Source: an uncultured Candidatus Saccharibacteria bacterium | GTDB lineage: Bacteria > Patescibacteriota > Saccharimonadia > Saccharimonadales > UBA7683 | Direction of reading: 5' to 3' | Length of the DNA stretch: 64,000 nt | Assembly (NCBI GenBank): GCA_964632215.1 | Contig: CAZWBG010000001.1 | Coordinates: forward strand, 174,589 to 238,588 | Shown here: positions 34,401 to 63,096 of the stretch, piece after piece | How the letters are laid out: every line of letters begins with the position of its first letter | Numbering within the stretch: position 1 is the first letter of the stretch | The notes under the pieces: generated by a model | What the model was told of the DNA's origin: nothing | The model's input: the letters and a program-made list of their open reading frames with translations, nothing else | Databases searched by the model: none | Program-made: the position numbers and the translations under genes

Positions 34401-34427
34401 TTAGCAGTCCTGCGTCAAGAGTGCTAA
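34401..34427 (-). promoter_or_regulatory. CIRCE-like HrcA operator overlapping the clpP promoter
   Basis: TTAGCAGTC-N9-GAGTGCTAA, which is 17 of 18 arm positions against the consensus TTAGCACTC-N9-GAGTGCTAA. On the minus strand the spacer begins with the -35-like TTGACG. Confidence 0.75.
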
Positions 34428-34434
34428 ATTAGAC

Positions 34435-40836: not shown

Positions 40837-40921
40837 TGGTACCGCGGAGAGGACTTGAACCTCCACGCCCGAAGGCACTAGCTCCTAAGGCTAGCGTGTC
40901 TACCAATTCCACCACCGCGGC
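40837..40921 (-). tRNA. tRNA-Leu (anticodon TAG), class II with long variable arm and encoded CCA
   Basis: Reverse complement is GCCGCGGTGGTGGAATTGGTAGACACGCTAGCCTTAGGAGCTAGTGCCTTCGGGCGTGGAGGTTCAAGTCCTCTCCGCGGTACCA. Anticodon arm is CTAGC-CTTAGGA-GCTAG, and the T-loop is TTCAAGT. Confidence 0.93.
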
Positions 40922-42961: not shown

Positions 42962-45019
42962 TTAGTTTAAATACGTGAGACTGCGACTTTTTTGAACTCT
43001 TTTTTCTAGCTCAGGATAGTCACTCAGCTTCTCTTTGCCTTTGAGAAAGTCTTGGGCACTCTGGCGAGTTTTTTTGATGAGCTCCATATCTGTAATATTA
43101 GCAATTCTTAGATCTAACTGTCCGTGCTGACGTGTGCCATAAATTGCTCCTGGGCCGCGCAGCTCTAGGTCCATTTCCGCAAGCTTAAAACCATTGTTTG
43201 TGGTTACCATAGCCCGAAGTCGTCGAGAAGGCTTTTGTGAGGTAGATGGCACCAAGTAGCAGTAGCTCTGGTGCACGCTACGTCCAACTCGACCTCGAAG
43301 TTGATGTAGCTGAGCCAAGCCAAACTGATCTGCTCCTTCTATGAGCATAACGCTGGCATTTGGTATATCTATACCTACTTCTATAACCGTTGTGCTCACG
43401 AGAATATCCAGCTCGTGATTGACAAAATCTTGCATGACCTCAGCTTTTTGTTCGTCTTTGAGTTTGCCGTGTAGCACTCCAATTCGACGATGCTTAAACG
43501 GACCTTGCTGCAAACGCTTGAGCTCTTCGTTCACACTTTTCACTTCTGATCCTTCAGAATCGTCTATCAGCGGACAGACTACAAACGCTTGTCGGCCAAG
43601 TTTAATTTGCTCTTCAATCTCATCATAAAGCTGTGCCCGAGAATTAGGCGACCAAATATCAGTTTTAATTGGTAGACGATTATTCGGTTTAGTAGCTATC
43701 AATGATATTTCCAGCTCACCGTAGACCGTTAAAGCTAGTGAGCGCGGGATTGGCGTGGCAGTCATGCTCAATATGTGCGGCACGGCCTCGCCCTTATCTA
43801 CCAGCTTCTGGCGCTGCTTAACCCCAAAACGATGCTGCTCATCAACAATAATCAGCCCGAGGCGCTTAAACGTAACATCATCTTGAATGAGCGAATGTGT
43901 ACCACTGACAATATCTATCTCACCTTTCGCAAGCTGCTCTTTTAGCGTAGTTTTAGCCTTACCTTTTACCGCAGAAGTAAGCAGAGCCACCTTGACACCC
44001 AAAGGTTCTAGAATATCGGCCAGAGTTTTGGCATGCTGACGAGCCAAAAGCTCAGTTGGCGCCATCACCGCTGTTTGAATGCCTTGTTTGGCTGCAATAT
44101 AGGCCCCAAAAGCCGCTACGACGGTTTTACCAGAACCAACATCACCCTCAAGTAGACGGTTCATCGGAGTGATCTTGTCAATATCTTGTAATACCTCCCA
44201 CGCAGCCTTCTTCTGAGCTGGAGTAAGCTCAAATGGCAAGGCAGATACGAATGATTGAGCCATTTTTTCGTCAAACTGTATCTGAAGTGCGGTTTCTGTC
44301 TCAACCTCTTGTTTATTGAGCTGCGCAGCCAAAACATACGCAAATAACTCTTCAAAGCCAATACGCTCACGTGCCTGAGCTAGCTTCTCCTGACTCTCTG
44401 GCCAGTGCATTTGCCGCGCTGCATCTGCGAAACTCATCAACTTATGATCTTTTATAATGTTCGATGGCAATGTTTCAGGCAATTGCTGAAAAAATTGTGT
44501 TACTTCAGCTAGAAACTTACGGATCTCTCGAGAATCGAGCCCTTTGGTTTGCTGATAGATTGGCACAATTCGAGCAGTATTTTTTGTAAAATCTTTAGCC
44601 TCCTCAACCGTTGGGTTTTGCAATATATATCGGTTATAGCTAAAATCGTACAAACCAGAAAAATAGTACTGCTTACCTGCCTTAAAATAAGCCTCGCGGT
44701 ACGGTTGATTGAACCAAACTGTTCTGACCGCAGAGGTTTCATCACGCAGAACTGCTTCAGTAATATGCATACCGCGTCGAACTCGGCGAGTCTTCAGTGC
44801 CTCCACTCGAGCCTTAATGGTTACACCGCCAGGTTTGATATCAGCAATAGCTAGTACTTGCGAGTAATCGTCATATCGACGCGGCCAATCAGTGAGCAGG
44901 TCATAAATAGTGTATACACCAAGCTTATCGAACTTCTTGACTGTCTCTGCACCAACCCCTTTAATAGTTTCAATTAGTAATTTAGTATCCATTACTAACA
45001 GATTATAGACTATTGACAT
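42962..45019 (-). CDS. recG: ATP-dependent DNA helicase RecG (alternative start at 44992)
   Basis: GDVGSGKT Walker A, DEQHRFG and QLRGRVGR motifs, plus an N-terminal wedge domain. Confidence 0.95.
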   Translation of the reverse strand: MSIVYNLLVMDTKLLIETIKGVGAETVKKFDKLGVYTIYDLLTDWPRRYDDYSQVLAIADIKPGGVTIKARVEALKTRRVRRGMHITEAVLRDETSAVRTVWFNQPYREAYFKAGKQYYFSGLYDFSYNRYILQNPTVEEAKDFTKNTARIVPIYQQTKGLDSREIRKFLAEVTQFFQQLPETLPSNIIKDHKLMSFADAARQMHWPESQEKLAQARERIGFEELFAYVLAAQLNKQEVETETALQIQFDEKMAQSFVSALPFELTPAQKKAAWEVLQDIDKITPMNRLLEGDVGSGKTVVAAFGAYIAAKQGIQTAVMAPTELLARQHAKTLADILEPLGVKVALLTSAVKGKAKTTLKEQLAKGEIDIVSGTHSLIQDDVTFKRLGLIIVDEQHRFGVKQRQKLVDKGEAVPHILSMTATPIPRSLALTVYGELEISLIATKPNNRLPIKTDIWSPNSRAQLYDEIEEQIKLGRQAFVVCPLIDDSEGSEVKSVNEELKRLQQGPFKHRRIGVLHGKLKDEQKAEVMQDFVNHELDILVSTTVIEVGIDIPNASVMLIEGADQFGLAQLHQLRGRVGRSVHQSYCYLVPSTSQKPSRRLRAMVTTNNGFKLAEMDLELRGPGAIYGTRQHGQLDLRIANITDMELIKKTRQSAQDFLKGKEKLSDYPELEKRVQKSRSLTYLN

Positions 45020-45041
45020 TTATACGATAATTTGATATAAT
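45013..45041 (+). promoter_or_regulatory. Perfect-consensus sigma70 promoter TTGACA-17 nt-TATAAT driving the plus-strand 45.1-46.8 kb unit
   Basis: TTGACA (45013-45018), a 17-nt spacer and TATAAT (45036-45041). Confidence 0.7.
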
Positions 45042-45102
45042 GTAGATATAGGCACAGGTTGTGTCTATCTGGGAATATCCCAGCACACCTCATGAGGCAA
45101 AT

Positions 45103-45435
45103 ATGCGTACCTGGAATATATTCAAGGGAAGCTTTAGGGATGGTTACCGCAGAGGCTACGCTAGCAACCGACAGGTGGCACCCACGCAGAGCATGAATCC
45201 TGCTGTAATCGATAGAATGCTATGCAAACTAATGGCCACTGGGCGCTTCACGTACCTTGCCGTGACTGCGAGCTCGCACAGCAAAACCAAGTTCGTACAT
45301 GGTGTACTTGACGAGGGTCGTCACTACGCCGAAGGTACTTCTGGCTTGTACAGCTATGTTGTACAGTGCAAGAGCGAAAGCCAGCCAATCACTGAGATGG
45401 TAGCAGAGCAGCTACACGCCATGCTGGAGGTGTGA
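45103..45435 (+). CDS. Hypothetical protein (110 aa)
   Basis: ATG at 45103 is preceded by GAGG 5 nt upstream. The ORF-track GTG at 45061 lies only about 13 nt from the predicted transcription start. Confidence 0.5.
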   Translation: MRTWNIFKGSFRDGYRRGYASNRQVAPTQSMNPAVIDRMLCKLMATGRFTYLAVTASSHSKTKFVHGVLDEGRHYAEGTSGLYSYVVQCKSESQPITEMVAEQLHAMLEV

Positions 45436-45459
45436 CAAGAGCACCCACACCCAGAGTAG

Positions 45460-45602
45460 TCTAGGATCCCGCAAGGGAATTACAGCTGGAACGTCCAGCC
45501 AAGTAGTGTCGACTATGCGAGTCCGCTCTCCTAGATAACGAACCTGAAAACACATTATTGTAGCGAAAGCTACGGTTACACGTGTGAGTAGGGTTCTATT
45601 TT
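45460..45602 (+). ncRNA. Unclassified structured RNA element, copy 1
   Basis: Shares 30-nt and 22-nt identical blocks with copy 2. Helices are TCTAGGA/TCCTAGA, GCTGGA-ACG-TCCAGC, TCCC-GCAA-GGGA, GTAGC-GAAA-GCTAC and GAACC/GGTTC, followed by a T-rich tail. Confidence 0.6.
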
Positions 45603-45706
45603 TATACTATGATATTGCGGTATTCTCATATAAATGATTTAATGCTGTCAGCTAAGTGTTATTCTTGGAGAACCTTAACCGTTACAACCAAAGAAGGAGA
45701 CTTCTC

Positions 45707-46360
45707 GTGTTCACACACTGCACACAGAGACTTTTGCCTAGGTGGTGTTTTCTTATCTACATTGTTGGCGAACTCACTGTTCTAGGATTCTGGCTCATAG
45801 CAGGTCGCATGCCAAGCTCAGACATCTTGAAGGTTGGTGTTGATAGCGGCTGGGTACTTCCATTCGAAGTCCCAGCTGTCTGGGTGCCAGTCGTCATGTG
45901 TCTACCGCTGAGTATCTTGATAATCCTGTTCTTAAACATTGATGAACTACAGCACCGATATGGACTACATCATGAACAGGGAGTAAGCTCTGCGGTGATC
46001 TCAGGATTCATACTGGGTATGTTCAGTATTCCCGTCATCTCACTCACAGGGATTCAGGGAGTACTTATCGGAACAGCTGCTTCAGTTTGTTTCATTCTGT
46101 ATTTTACGAGCACCGCAATTAATAGATGGGGGGATGTTTGGCCGCTCGCCTGGAAGAGCTTTCTTACGGAGCTCACAGCAGTGACAGTGATTTGGCTTTC
46201 GATGACTGCGATAATGGGAGTGGTAGCTGGATTGCTCTATGCACTCTTTGCACTTGTCGTTGCGGCAGTAGTACACTTTGGCATAATTGGCCTGCTATTC
46301 GCGCTCAGAGCTATCACAAAGCTCTTTGTAAGAACTATGCTGGTTTGTAACGTTGAATGA
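45707..46360 (+). CDS. Hypothetical polytopic membrane protein (about 6 TM)
   Basis: GTG at 45707 is preceded by GAAGGAG (45693-45699). The ORF-track GTG at 45656 lacks an RBS. Confidence 0.6.
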   Translation: MFTHCTQRLLPRWCFLIYIVGELTVLGFWLIAGRMPSSDILKVGVDSGWVLPFEVPAVWVPVVMCLPLSILIILFLNIDELQHRYGLHHEQGVSSAVISGFILGMFSIPVISLTGIQGVLIGTAASVCFILYFTSTAINRWGDVWPLAWKSFLTELTAVTVIWLSMTAIMGVVAGLLYALFALVVAAVVHFGIIGLLFALRAITKLFVRTMLVCNVE

Positions 46361-46376
46361 ATAATTCAAGATGACA

Positions 46377-46520
46377 TCTAGGGTCTATAAGCTGGGATTG
46401 TCCCAGTGAAGTAGCGTCGGCTATACTCGTCCGCTCTCCTAGATAACGAACCTGAAAATACATATCGTGGCGATAGCTACGGTTACATGCGAAAGCATAC
46501 GTGTGAGTAGGGTTCTATTT
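46377..46520 (+). ncRNA. Unclassified structured RNA element, copy 2
   Basis: Same architecture as copy 1 with helix-preserving changes: GCTGGGA-TTG-TCCCAGT, GTGGC-GATA-GCTAC, and an extra ATGC-GAAA-GCAT hairpin. Confidence 0.6.
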
Positions 46521-46550
46521 AATTGGCGATGAATTCGATATACTAAAAGT

Positions 46551-46811
46551 ATGCAGAATATTCCTCATGGCTGGGTTAAGCAGAATGAATCTTTAGTATT
46601 TACTCTAAAGTGCCGTGATTTCAGACATGCCCTAATTTTAGTAAATGCCATTGGTGACATTGCCGAAAAAGAGCAACATCACCCTGATATTCAGATACAA
46701 AACTATAATGAACTAACCGTCATCACCTCAACCCATGACGCTAAAGAATTAACCGACAAAGACTACAAGTTAGCTCAAGAAATTACAGACCTACTTAAGA
46801 ACGAAGGTTAG
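46551..46811 (+). CDS. Pterin-4-alpha-carbinolamine dehydratase (PCD/DCoH family)
   Basis: 86 aa with EKEQHHPDIQIQNYNELTV, the hallmark HHPD motif. Confidence 0.85.
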   Translation: MQNIPHGWVKQNESLVFTLKCRDFRHALILVNAIGDIAEKEQHHPDIQIQNYNELTVITSTHDAKELTDKDYKLAQEITDLLKNEG

Positions 46812-46823
46812 ATACAAAAACTT

Positions 46824-48035
46824 TTAGTTGGCGAGTAGGAAGGTGTTTTTGCCTTTTTTAATGAGGCTTGGAGCTTTTACGCTTCGGTCTGCGGTAATCT
46901 TTTCGCCATTTACGGTAATCGCACCACCTGCTATGAGGCGCCTGGCCTCACTTTTACTACCAGTAATTTTCGACATCACTAGTGCATCTATAACGTTTCC
47001 GGCGGTTGTTGTAGGAATCTCCTCAGCAAGCATAGCTAGGTCTTCCTCTAAAAGCTGTTCAAATGGAGTGTCGCCGAACAATACAGCGGTGACGTTTCGA
47101 GCACTTTGCGCCTTAGCTTCACCGTGCGCAAGTAGGGTCACTTCGTATGCTAATTGCTTTTGCGCAGCTCTCGCACCTGGGTTCTTTTTAAACTCAGCCA
47201 TTAGTGCTTCTAGCTCTGGGGGTTGAATAAGTGTGTAAATTTTAAGGTAATCTTCTACGCCTGCATCATCAACATTCAGCCAGAACTGATAAAACTTGTA
47301 TGGACTGGTTTTAGTGGGGTCAAGCCACACGGCACCATCTTCAGACTTACCAAACTTTACTCCAGTCGTTTTGTTAACAACAAGTGGCGTAGACCACACA
47401 TGCGCCTCAGCGCCTTCAAGTTTACGGATCATCTCAACCCCAGCCAAGCTATTACCCCACTGGTCGGCCCCACATAGCTGTAGTGTAACGCCCTTTTCAC
47501 GGAAGAGATGTAGAAAATCGTAACCTTGAATCAAGGAGTAACTAAATTCTGCGTAACTAATACCGCTACCACCTTCACCAATACGAGCTTTGATGAATTC
47601 CCTATCCAGCAGTTGTGTCATGGAAAAGTACTTACCAATGTTACGCAGAAAATCCATATAACTAATGTCTTTAAACCAGTCGTAATTGTTAACGATCTCG
47701 AATGGTTCACCCGCAAAAACTGTCTTATACTGTGCCGATATTCCTGTAATATTCTTTTCAATTTCATCAAGTTCTTTTAGATTACGTTCTTGCTTTTTAC
47801 CATCTGGATCACCAACTAAGCCCGTTGCCCCGCCCACCAGTAACACAGCCCTGTGACCATGGCTAATAAAGTGGCGAACCATCATTGCAGCCGCCAGGTT
47901 ACCAATAGTCATAGAATCAGCGCTCGGATCTACTCCCCAGTAGAAAGTGAGTGGTTGCTTGTCTAGTGTCGTTACATCTTTAAATGTGGTTTGGTTTACA
48001 AATCCGCGCCAGGTGAGTTCTTCTGAAAGTGTCAT
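46824..48035 (-). CDS. tyrS: Tyrosine--tRNA ligase
   Basis: The KFGKS motif (KMSKS-type), a C-terminal S4-like domain (SEARRLIAGGAITVNG), and GADQWGN. Confidence 0.93.
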   Translation of the reverse strand: MTLSEELTWRGFVNQTTFKDVTTLDKQPLTFYWGVDPSADSMTIGNLAAAMMVRHFISHGHRAVLLVGGATGLVGDPDGKKQERNLKELDEIEKNITGISAQYKTVFAGEPFEIVNNYDWFKDISYMDFLRNIGKYFSMTQLLDREFIKARIGEGGSGISYAEFSYSLIQGYDFLHLFREKGVTLQLCGADQWGNSLAGVEMIRKLEGAEAHVWSTPLVVNKTTGVKFGKSEDGAVWLDPTKTSPYKFYQFWLNVDDAGVEDYLKIYTLIQPPELEALMAEFKKNPGARAAQKQLAYEVTLLAHGEAKAQSARNVTAVLFGDTPFEQLLEEDLAMLAEEIPTTTAGNVIDALVMSKITGSKSEARRLIAGGAITVNGEKITADRSVKAPSLIKKGKNTFLLAN

Positions 48036-56632: not shown

Positions 56633-56675
56633 ATTATACTAATTTAGCACTCCTCATACAAGAGTGCTAAATTAG
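56633..56675 (-). promoter_or_regulatory. Perfect CIRCE (HrcA operator) embedded in the clpC promoter
   Basis: TTAGCACTC (56644-56652), N9, GAGTGCTAA (56662-56670), extended to a 14-bp perfect inverted repeat at 56639-56675. The minus strand reads CTAATTTAGCACTC-TTGTATGAG-GAGTGCTAAATTAG-TATAAT, giving -35 TTGTAT, a 17-nt spacer and -10 TATAAT. Confidence 0.85.
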
Positions 56676-56676
56676 A

Positions 56677-63051: not shown

Positions 63052-63096
63052 GTTGATATAAAAAAGACCGTGCAATACGGTCTTTTTTATATCAAC
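63052..63096 (-). terminator. Intrinsic (potentially bidirectional) terminator after rplS
   Basis: 20-bp perfect inverted repeat GTTGATATAAAAAAGACCGT / ACGGTCTTTTTTATATCAAC with a 5-nt loop. The core is GACCGT-N5-ACGGTC plus T6. Confidence 0.85.

Follow-up and report, generated by a model that had tools for sequence, protein, structure and literature searches.

A conserved three-way-junction RNA located behind accessory genes of the recG-PCD slot in Saccharibacteria

The window analyzed here is a 64,000-nt stretch from the genome of an uncultured Candidatus Saccharibacteria bacterium (contig CAZWBG010000001.1). Between recG and the PCD/DCoH gene (PCD) it carries two copies of a unit of about 140 nt, each close behind the stop codon of an open reading frame (ORF). 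The 5' half of this unit is a structured RNA, a compact three-way junction that is conserved in three other Saccharimonadales lineages and folds on the gene-sense strand. In relatives it is again placed just past a stop codon and is directly followed by an intrinsic terminator. Our tentative reading, held at slightly less than even odds (about 45%), is that each copy is a two-part module of the 3' untranslated region (UTR), made up of structured RNA and terminator and acting in cis on the transcript 3' end.

The two copies had been described in an earlier note, made from the letters of the window, as a single RNA of about 140 nt. Its positions and identical blocks were recovered from the sequence and with a repeat finder. 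The blocks are exactly identical over 30 nt (45521-45550 = 46429-46458) and 22 nt (45580-45601 = 46499-46520), and the repeat finder returned three collinear pieces (D1, 61 nt, 87%; D8, 25 nt, 88%; D10, 22 nt, 100%). No third copy was found in the window by the repeat finder or by the covariance model described below (R1, filters off). Gene calls, which were reproduced in an independent assembly of the same strain, place copy 1 24 nt after the stop of the ORF at 45103-45435 and copy 2 16 nt after the stop of the ORF at 45707-46360, in agreement with the distances of about 25 and 17 nt given previously. Copy 2 ends 30 nt before the PCD start (46551). The repeated unit is thus real, but the single RNA is a composite of a 5' three-way junction and a 3' half, two modules of differing evolutionary depth. 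The copies and their helices (P1, P1a, P2, P3) are located as follows.

45460-45603, plus strand: copy 1, whole unit
45460-45535, plus strand: copy 1 junction, with P1 at 45460-66/45529-35, P1a at 45467-78, P2 at 45485-90/45494-99 and P3 at 45505-08 + 45511-13/45521-27
46377-46522, plus strand: copy 2, whole unit
46377-46443, plus strand: copy 2 junction, without P1a, with P1 at 46377-83/46437-43, P2 at 46391-97/46401-07 and P3 at 46413-16 + 46419-21/46429-35

Relatives were found by synteny. RecG homologs assign the genome to the Saccharibacteria/Saccharimonadales, the nearest relative showing 79% RecG identity. Neighborhoods of recG were fetched via these homologs, and the resulting loci are referred to by L numbers. 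A homolog of the 5' half follows the recG-adjacent ORF in L014, L015/L016, L023 and L024, which represent three other lineages with recG DNA 65-69% identical to that of this genome. Each related locus holds a single copy, in a constant slot between recG and PCD and on a constant strand. Alignment A3 comprises six distinct sequences (copy 1, copy 2, L014, L015, L023 and L024) and defines a junction of about 67-76 nt with the following parts.

P1: closing helix of 7 bp, UCUAGGR/YCCUAGA in the window
P1a: optional hairpin, present in copy 1, L014 and L024
J1/2: 3-8 nt, AU-rich, variable in length and sequence
P2: 5-7 bp, GYUGG/CCARY (GCUGG/CCAGC type), with a loop of 3-11 nt
J2/3: 5-6 nt, containing RAG
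P3: AGYG, a 2-nt bulge (UY), GAY, a 7-nt loop, then RUC-CGCU
J3/1: a single C ahead of the P1 3' strand

The RNAalifold consensus was the same as the hand-derived P1/P2/P3. Across the six sequences, 95% of the 120 paired cells were compatible with pairing, compared with 33-44% when partners were slid by 1-3 columns. Both-sided changes were seen in 7 of 20 pairs, and none of 500 shuffles reached the observed values. Counted by lineage, this amounts to at least seven independent double changes. All one-sided changes (6/6) give G-U on the ORF-sense strand, indicating that the sense strand is the one that folds. Taken singly, the homologs each adopt the junction fold (z = -2.9 to -5.4). R1 scored copy 1 at 80.1 bits and copy 2 at 81.3 bits (known copies, 74-83 bits), with 12.6 bits (E = 0.5, filters off) for the next-best match in the window and no other match above 14 bits in the window or in the ~170 kb of related loci. 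The fold of copy 1 is 82% identical to that of L024; recG DNA between those genomes is 68% identical. A functionless local duplication with helices formed by chance is very improbable. It would be in keeping with the presence of just two adjacent copies and with flanking ORFs that are strain-confined or have a single homolog, but it is contradicted by the covariation, which includes compensatory changes in the three other lineages, by the RNAalifold consensus and by significant fold-energy z-scores. For the 5' half, covariation across four lineages bears out the view of the earlier note that this is a functional RNA rather than a decaying duplication.

Minimum free energy (MFE) folding of the plus strand gave -53 kcal/mol for copy 1 (z = -4.7) and -47 kcal/mol for copy 2 (z = -2.5), with weaker folding of the minus strand (z = -3.0 and -1.1, respectively). 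All helices listed previously are present in the plus-strand folds, although the copy 2 loop described as GNRA is GAUA (46472-46475) and does not belong to that class. For 45505-45527 the P3 register given above was adopted, as it is supported by all six sequences and RNAalifold, unlike the single-sequence fold. A hairpin UAGU-GUCG-ACUA (45504-45516) that forms in both window copies fails in L014, L015, L023 and L024 and was rejected. The most conserved bases of the junction sit in the paired P2 and P3, and its junction nucleotides show little conservation.

The two window copies are mosaic, with 5' parts that are 68% identical and complete identity (100%) from the P3 3' strand onward. The 5' part of copy 1 is nearest to L024 (80%), with which it shares the P1a hairpin and the P3 loop UAUGCGA. 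Copy 2 is without P1a, like L015 and L023, and the shared part after the P3 3' strand is nearest to L015. Recombination or gene conversion between elements could have produced this pattern.

The position of the fold relative to its neighbors was next compared. It begins 14-24 nt past the upstream stop codon in both window copies and in L014, L015, L023 and L024. The ORFs ahead of it belong to at least four families (ORF110/ORF101, 40% identical; ORF139/ORF140; ORF90; and ORF217) for which no similarity to one another or to an annotated family was detected, so the fold is independent of the upstream protein. The gene behind it is ORF217 for copy 1, PCD for copy 2, L015 and L023, and a convergent MFS-type gene in L014 and L024; the convergent orientation in these two loci makes the fold independent of the downstream gene as well. 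No conserved promoter was seen by eye ahead of the fold. The constant features of the slot are a promoter, a structured leader (in most lineages), the junction and a terminator, and it is the protein between them that varies. Constant UTR features around a varying protein fit a module that acts on the transcript end independently of either neighbor gene.

In the relatives, a canonical intrinsic terminator begins 4-5 nt after P1, with stems of 8-12 bp in L015, L014 and L024. In the window the corresponding position is occupied by a branched hairpin.

L015: terminator of 8 bp, GGCCCCGC-CAUCA-GCGGGGCU with a U-tract
L014: terminator of 8 bp, GACCCCGA-GCAA-UCGGGGUC, bidirectional
L024: terminator with a 12-bp stem, then seven U
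45540-45596, plus strand: copy 1 3' branched hairpin GAACCU...GGGUUC (MFE fold), followed by the U-run UAUUUUU, which ends at 45603
46448-46515, plus strand: copy 2 3' branched hairpin with an extra AUGC-GAAA-GCAU hairpin, followed by the U-run UAUUUAAU, which ends at 46522

The window hairpins span 57-68 nt, enclose one or two GNRA-type hairpins and begin 4 nt past P1, with the linker UAAC as in L015. The U content after them is 6/8 and 5/8. Judged by its position, the 3' half would be the equivalent, probably also in function, of the relatives' terminator. No homolog of the 3' half was found in any fetched related locus. Between copy 1 and copy 2, its helices carry three substitutions (C-G to U-G, U-G to C-G and A-U to G-U), all of which keep pairing. 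Three compatible one-sided changes are expected by chance about once in eight times, so support for pairing in this half is weak; the changes are pairing-compatible as the earlier note had said, but its claim of selection was overstated for a comparison of two sequences. The 11-nt CTACGGTTACA of the window hairpin (45570-45580 and 46477-46487) recurs at L015 6449-6439 (minus strand; E = 0.67), within the P1 5' strand of the L015/L016 fold, probably by chance.

We propose that the module would be transcribed together with the preceding gene, from the promoter at 45013-45041, and that the 3' half, 4-5 nt past P1, would act as a transcription terminator. The branched hairpin of the window is probably a weaker terminator, which would allow some read-through into ORF217 and PCD. 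The fold itself would give mRNAs of the fast-changing recG-PCD slot a common, compact and sequence-specific 3' end. It would most likely serve as a site for binding or shielding that determines how stable the 3' end is or how it is processed, and it may persist as a stable RNA derived from the 3' end. The conserved sequence of P2 and P3 suggests a specific protein or RNA partner. We infer termination by the 3' half, and a role in stability or processing, from this arrangement; a 3'-UTR or termination element was among the options raised in the earlier note, and it fits the post-stop placement and the terminators in relatives. Several points weigh against the proposal. A terminator scan of 44900-46900 gave 0 canonical terminators, the closing stem of the 3' hairpin being 6 bp, and the window 3' half is represented by two sequences only. 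Few independent events underlie the covariation statistics, which come from four lineages and six distinct sequences. Co-transcription, termination and a possible effect on stability are deduced from sequence, and the strong sequence conservation of P2 and P3 points to a specific partner. Finally, a plain terminator hairpin would suffice for protecting a 3' end, which leaves the extra fold unexplained.

Comparable 3' stabilizer terminators include the 'positive retroregulator' of Bacillus thuringiensis cry and the repetitive extragenic palindromic (REP) and bacterial interspersed mosaic element (BIME) hairpins in Escherichia coli 3' UTRs. As in these systems, the element would form a structured mRNA end next to or including the terminator and would work whatever gene lies upstream. 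Unlike them, it adds a sequence-conserved three-way junction ahead of the terminator. It also differs in occupying a single locus rather than being a dispersed repeat, and in the replacement of the terminator hairpin by a branched structure in the window.

A regulated terminator, in which the junction senses a ligand or factor (as a riboswitch or protein attenuator) and sets read-through into ORF217 or PCD, is an unlikely alternative for which the architecture is nevertheless right: a compact junction is followed by a terminator 4-5 nt later, much as in purine-type riboswitches, where a few nucleotides separate the ~70-nt P1/P2/P3 junction from the terminator hairpin, and a co-directional gene lies within 30-105 nt in the window, L015 and L023. 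However, purine-type riboswitches sit in 5' leaders and not after a stop codon, and the distance here is fixed to the upstream stop codon rather than the downstream start. The next gene is convergent in two lineages (L014, with its variants L025-L034, and L024), where the fold is intact and covarying. The junction strand J1/2 varies from 3 to 8 nt, unlike a ligand pocket, and the element has no Rfam match. Junction and terminator coexist in all MFE and centroid folds of four homologs, with no alternative pairing seen, although no search dedicated to such pairing was made. In addition, PCD seems to own a -10 box. The riboswitch or attenuator leader suggested in the earlier note is accordingly disfavored by the tie to the upstream stop and the convergent genes, and its idea of a pterin or thiamine-related ligand finds no support given the apparent -10 box of PCD, read from the sequence. 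Of similarly low probability is a cassette boundary, also raised in the earlier note and still a minority reading, in which the fold would act as DNA or single-stranded DNA at an exchange or insertion site for ORF-plus-element cassettes between recG and PCD, either by site-specific recombination as at integron attC or by homologous recombination anchored on the fold. In its favor, a shared 3' element follows ORFs of families without detected similarity, in a single orientation and under one promoter; close relatives have nothing or something else in the slot; the GC content of the slot ORFs is high (50-61% versus 45-48% for recG); and the two window copies are mosaic. In integron cassettes, too, the ORFs are variable, mostly orphan and uniformly oriented behind a shared promoter, and each is closely followed by a structured element whose fold is conserved above its sequence. 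The element, with the ends TCTAGGR and YCCTAGA-TAAC, has no RYYYAAC/GTTRRRY core sites as read from the sequence, GTTRRRY being absent from both of its strands, and the consensus is a three-way junction and not the one long hairpin of attC. An attC site folds from its bottom strand; here the G-U pattern favors the sense strand. No recombinase or integrase was found among the ten neighboring genes scanned, all of which are housekeeping or of unassigned family. In the loci covered, the element stays across lineages at one chromosomal slot with one or two units rather than an array, with no further copy in the 64 kb read of this genome's ~690-kb contig or in ~170 kb from relatives, and it is absent from phage, plasmid and viral collections. 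A long shot is that the junction is the defining signal of an unseen kind of gene cassette of the Candidate Phyla Radiation (CPR), in which small orphan genes are swapped into a promoter-equipped chromosomal slot. The fold could then be a recombination site or a catalytic or processing RNA, in a system that is integron-like but dissimilar to attC/IntI.

Two further alternatives concern the fate of the RNA, and we consider each of them improbable. In one, the fold is an RNA-processing signal, either a ribozyme cleaving itself or a tRNA-like substrate of RNase P or RNase Z, with the cut in the mRNA falling just after the ORF. The element lies between genes, as tRNA-like punctuation does, and its topology is cloverleaf-like: P1 has 7 bp and is followed by an optional arm of 4 bp, a middle arm, a connector of 5 nt and a further arm whose loop has 7 nt, with one nucleotide left ahead of the P1 3' strand. 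The short, constant spacing from the stop codon would also be consistent with cleavage there. A tRNA or tRNA pseudogene was nevertheless rejected. ARAGORN reported no gene in 45300-46700 or, for L014, L015, L023 and L024, at the element. Neither the Rfam tRNA model (RF00005) nor an Rfam ribozyme model matched, even at E<=10. The P2 loops, 3-11 nt in length, do not resemble an anticodon loop, a T-loop signature and a CCA are both absent, and the poorly conserved junction nucleotides are unlike known ribozyme cores. In the other, fold and terminator are released from the 3' UTR as a trans-acting small RNA (sRNA) that acts on other transcripts or proteins. With its structure, its terminator end and its ~110-145 nt, the RNA would have the form usual for sRNAs derived from 3' UTRs, and its conservation is independent of the ORF. 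The enterobacterial CpxQ, SroC and DapZ are 3'-UTR-derived sRNAs of this form, each a conserved structured RNA sharing the mRNA terminator. They differ from the present element, which is unrelated in phylum and sequence and whose release is hypothetical. Its most conserved bases are paired, in P2 and P3, with no obvious single-stranded seed; it has no visible promoter of its own, and its absence from many close relatives implies no conserved target network.

The fold is a new, narrowly distributed family, and a structured 3'-UTR RNA attached to a terminator is of a familiar kind. Its unclassified status, claimed in the earlier note, withstood comparison with Rfam 15, in which no family matched the element at the gathering threshold or the region 45400-46600 at E<=10. 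The only match in the window at the gathering threshold was a tRNA at 40840-40921. At E<=5, nothing in L014, L023 and L024 overlapped the element. The fold was also not found when open-access papers and preprints were searched in full text for structured RNAs of Saccharibacteria. Viral contigs contained no match to exact or degenerate patterns of the conserved blocks, and blastn of 45040-46550 gave none in phages and plasmids. The pattern scan of GTDB species genomes yielded one chance match, in a Rhabdochromatium coding region, and that of JGI metagenomes nine chance matches, all in coding sequence. The true distribution is probably underestimated, as these large collections were scanned at a stage when it was not yet clear which bases are truly conserved. 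A generic dispersed repeat, named in the earlier note as a reading that would undo the functional claim, was rejected: there are two copies in 64 kb and one per related locus (~170 kb in all), in a single slot and on a single strand. A template/variable repeat (TR/VR) pair of a diversity-generating retroelement (DGR) was also rejected, since neither copy is coding and the differences include C/T and G/A changes as well as indels.

In the reduced, host-dependent Saccharibacteria, non-coding RNAs are almost uncharted. Here, a compact, covariation-supported fold that is in no catalog is attached to the 3' end of whichever fast-evolving accessory gene fills the slot. A role in 3'-end formation or stability would make it a portable 3' module and a lead on how newly acquired genes are expressed, and a role in cassette exchange would point to a new route of gene turnover in Saccharibacteria. 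In practical terms, it is a defined target of ~70 nt, with an alignment and a covariance model, for wider searches and biochemistry.

The remaining features of the locus are as follows.

42962-45019, minus strand: recG, upstream neighbor of the plus-strand unit
45013-45041, plus strand: sigma-70 promoter that drives the plus-strand unit, TTGACA, 17-nt spacer and TATAAT (12/12 consensus matches), with TG upstream
45042-45102, plus strand: structured 5' leader of ORF110, with the hairpin CTGGGAATATCCCAG at 45069-45083, then CACACC and the ribosome binding site (RBS) GAGG, identified by eye
45103-45435, plus strand: ORF110, small protein without assigned function, 52% GC
45707-46360, plus strand: ORF217, predicted membrane protein, in this strain only
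46539-46544, plus strand: PCD -10 box TATACT, 6 nt before the ATG, without a Shine-Dalgarno sequence, identified by eye
46551-46811, plus strand: PCD/DCoH, Pfam Pterin_4a (E = 4e-20)
after PCD, minus strand: tyrS

An equivalent promoter is present at the equivalent position in relatives, with 12/12 consensus matches in L014 and 10/12 in both L015 and L024. The 5' leader of ORF110 is also kept in relatives with dissimilar ORFs, at L015 6887-6960, L023 4890-4960 and L014 6915-6975, all on the minus strand. The leader hairpins are CTGGTGATACACCAG in L015/L023 and GGGGTGAAGAACCCC in L014, with changes on both sides of the stems (CUGGG/CCCAG, CUGGU/ACCAG and GGGGU/ACCCC) as judged by eye without statistics; a CRCACC box and an RBS follow. 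With the 5' leader and the 3' fold both conserved across dissimilar ORFs, both UTRs have been kept while the protein changed. Extended -10 boxes similar to that of PCD lie just ahead of the PCD ATG in L012, L014 and L015, again by eye, and PCD is probably a separate leaderless transcript with its own promoter. A remnant PCD start as a duplicated flank after both copies was considered and rejected (score 15, shuffled mean 15.4).

Within the clade, the recG-PCD gap is a variable gene slot, filled as listed below.

L012 and L020: slot empty, with the PCD start 12-16 nt from the recG start
L015/L016, L023, L022 and L024: slot with one ORF
L014 and L019: slot with an ORF and MarR and MFS genes
L017/L018: PCD absent

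The slot ORFs of L022 (ORF168) and L019 (ORF312) are without the RNA fold. Slot ORFs have a GC content of 50-61% (ORF217, 47%), compared with 45-48% for recG in those genomes. ORF139 and ORF140 (L015 6467-6886 and L023 4467-4889, both minus strand) show 74% DNA identity, with 34/24/51 changes at codon positions 1/2/3 and no indels, and the flanking recG and PCD show 91-94%. Their proteins are 66% identical, compared with 96% for the adjacent RecG. On these comparisons, slot ORFs appear to evolve much faster than their neighbors.

Initial homolog searches with ORF110 and ORF217 returned self-matches. A search of the full library added P0123 (101 aa, 42% identity, E = 4.7e-14) as the sole homolog of ORF110, which led to L014, where it occupies the slot. 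ORF217 matched only itself among 5.8 billion proteins. Neither ORF belongs to a Pfam, PADLOC or PHROG family. Assignment of ORF110 to Mrr_cat was rejected, the weak match (E = 0.077) not being reproduced with P0123, as was a common family for ORF110 and ORF139 (hhalign probability 0.3%). An AlphaFold model of ORF110 was of insufficient quality for use (pLDDT, the predicted local distance difference test score, 44.6). Ten more P0123-bearing contigs (L025-L034) added one single-base variant of the fold. At least 14 contigs, drawn from many samples, encode an identical ORF101 protein, and a bulge base of the fold varies among these loci (GCGUCGA or GCGUUGA).

Two further repeats were also observed in the window. 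A 33-nt intergenic repeat (34401-34433 and 56644-56676, 85% identical) forms a 9-bp hairpin, TTAGCACTC...GAGTGCTAA, followed by ATTAGA, and its copies follow two minus-strand genes that are unrelated. At 63052-63096, GTTGATATAAAAAAGACCGT/ACGGTCTTTTTTATATCAAC form a perfect inverted repeat of 20 nt around a 5-nt loop, which resembles a bidirectional terminator.

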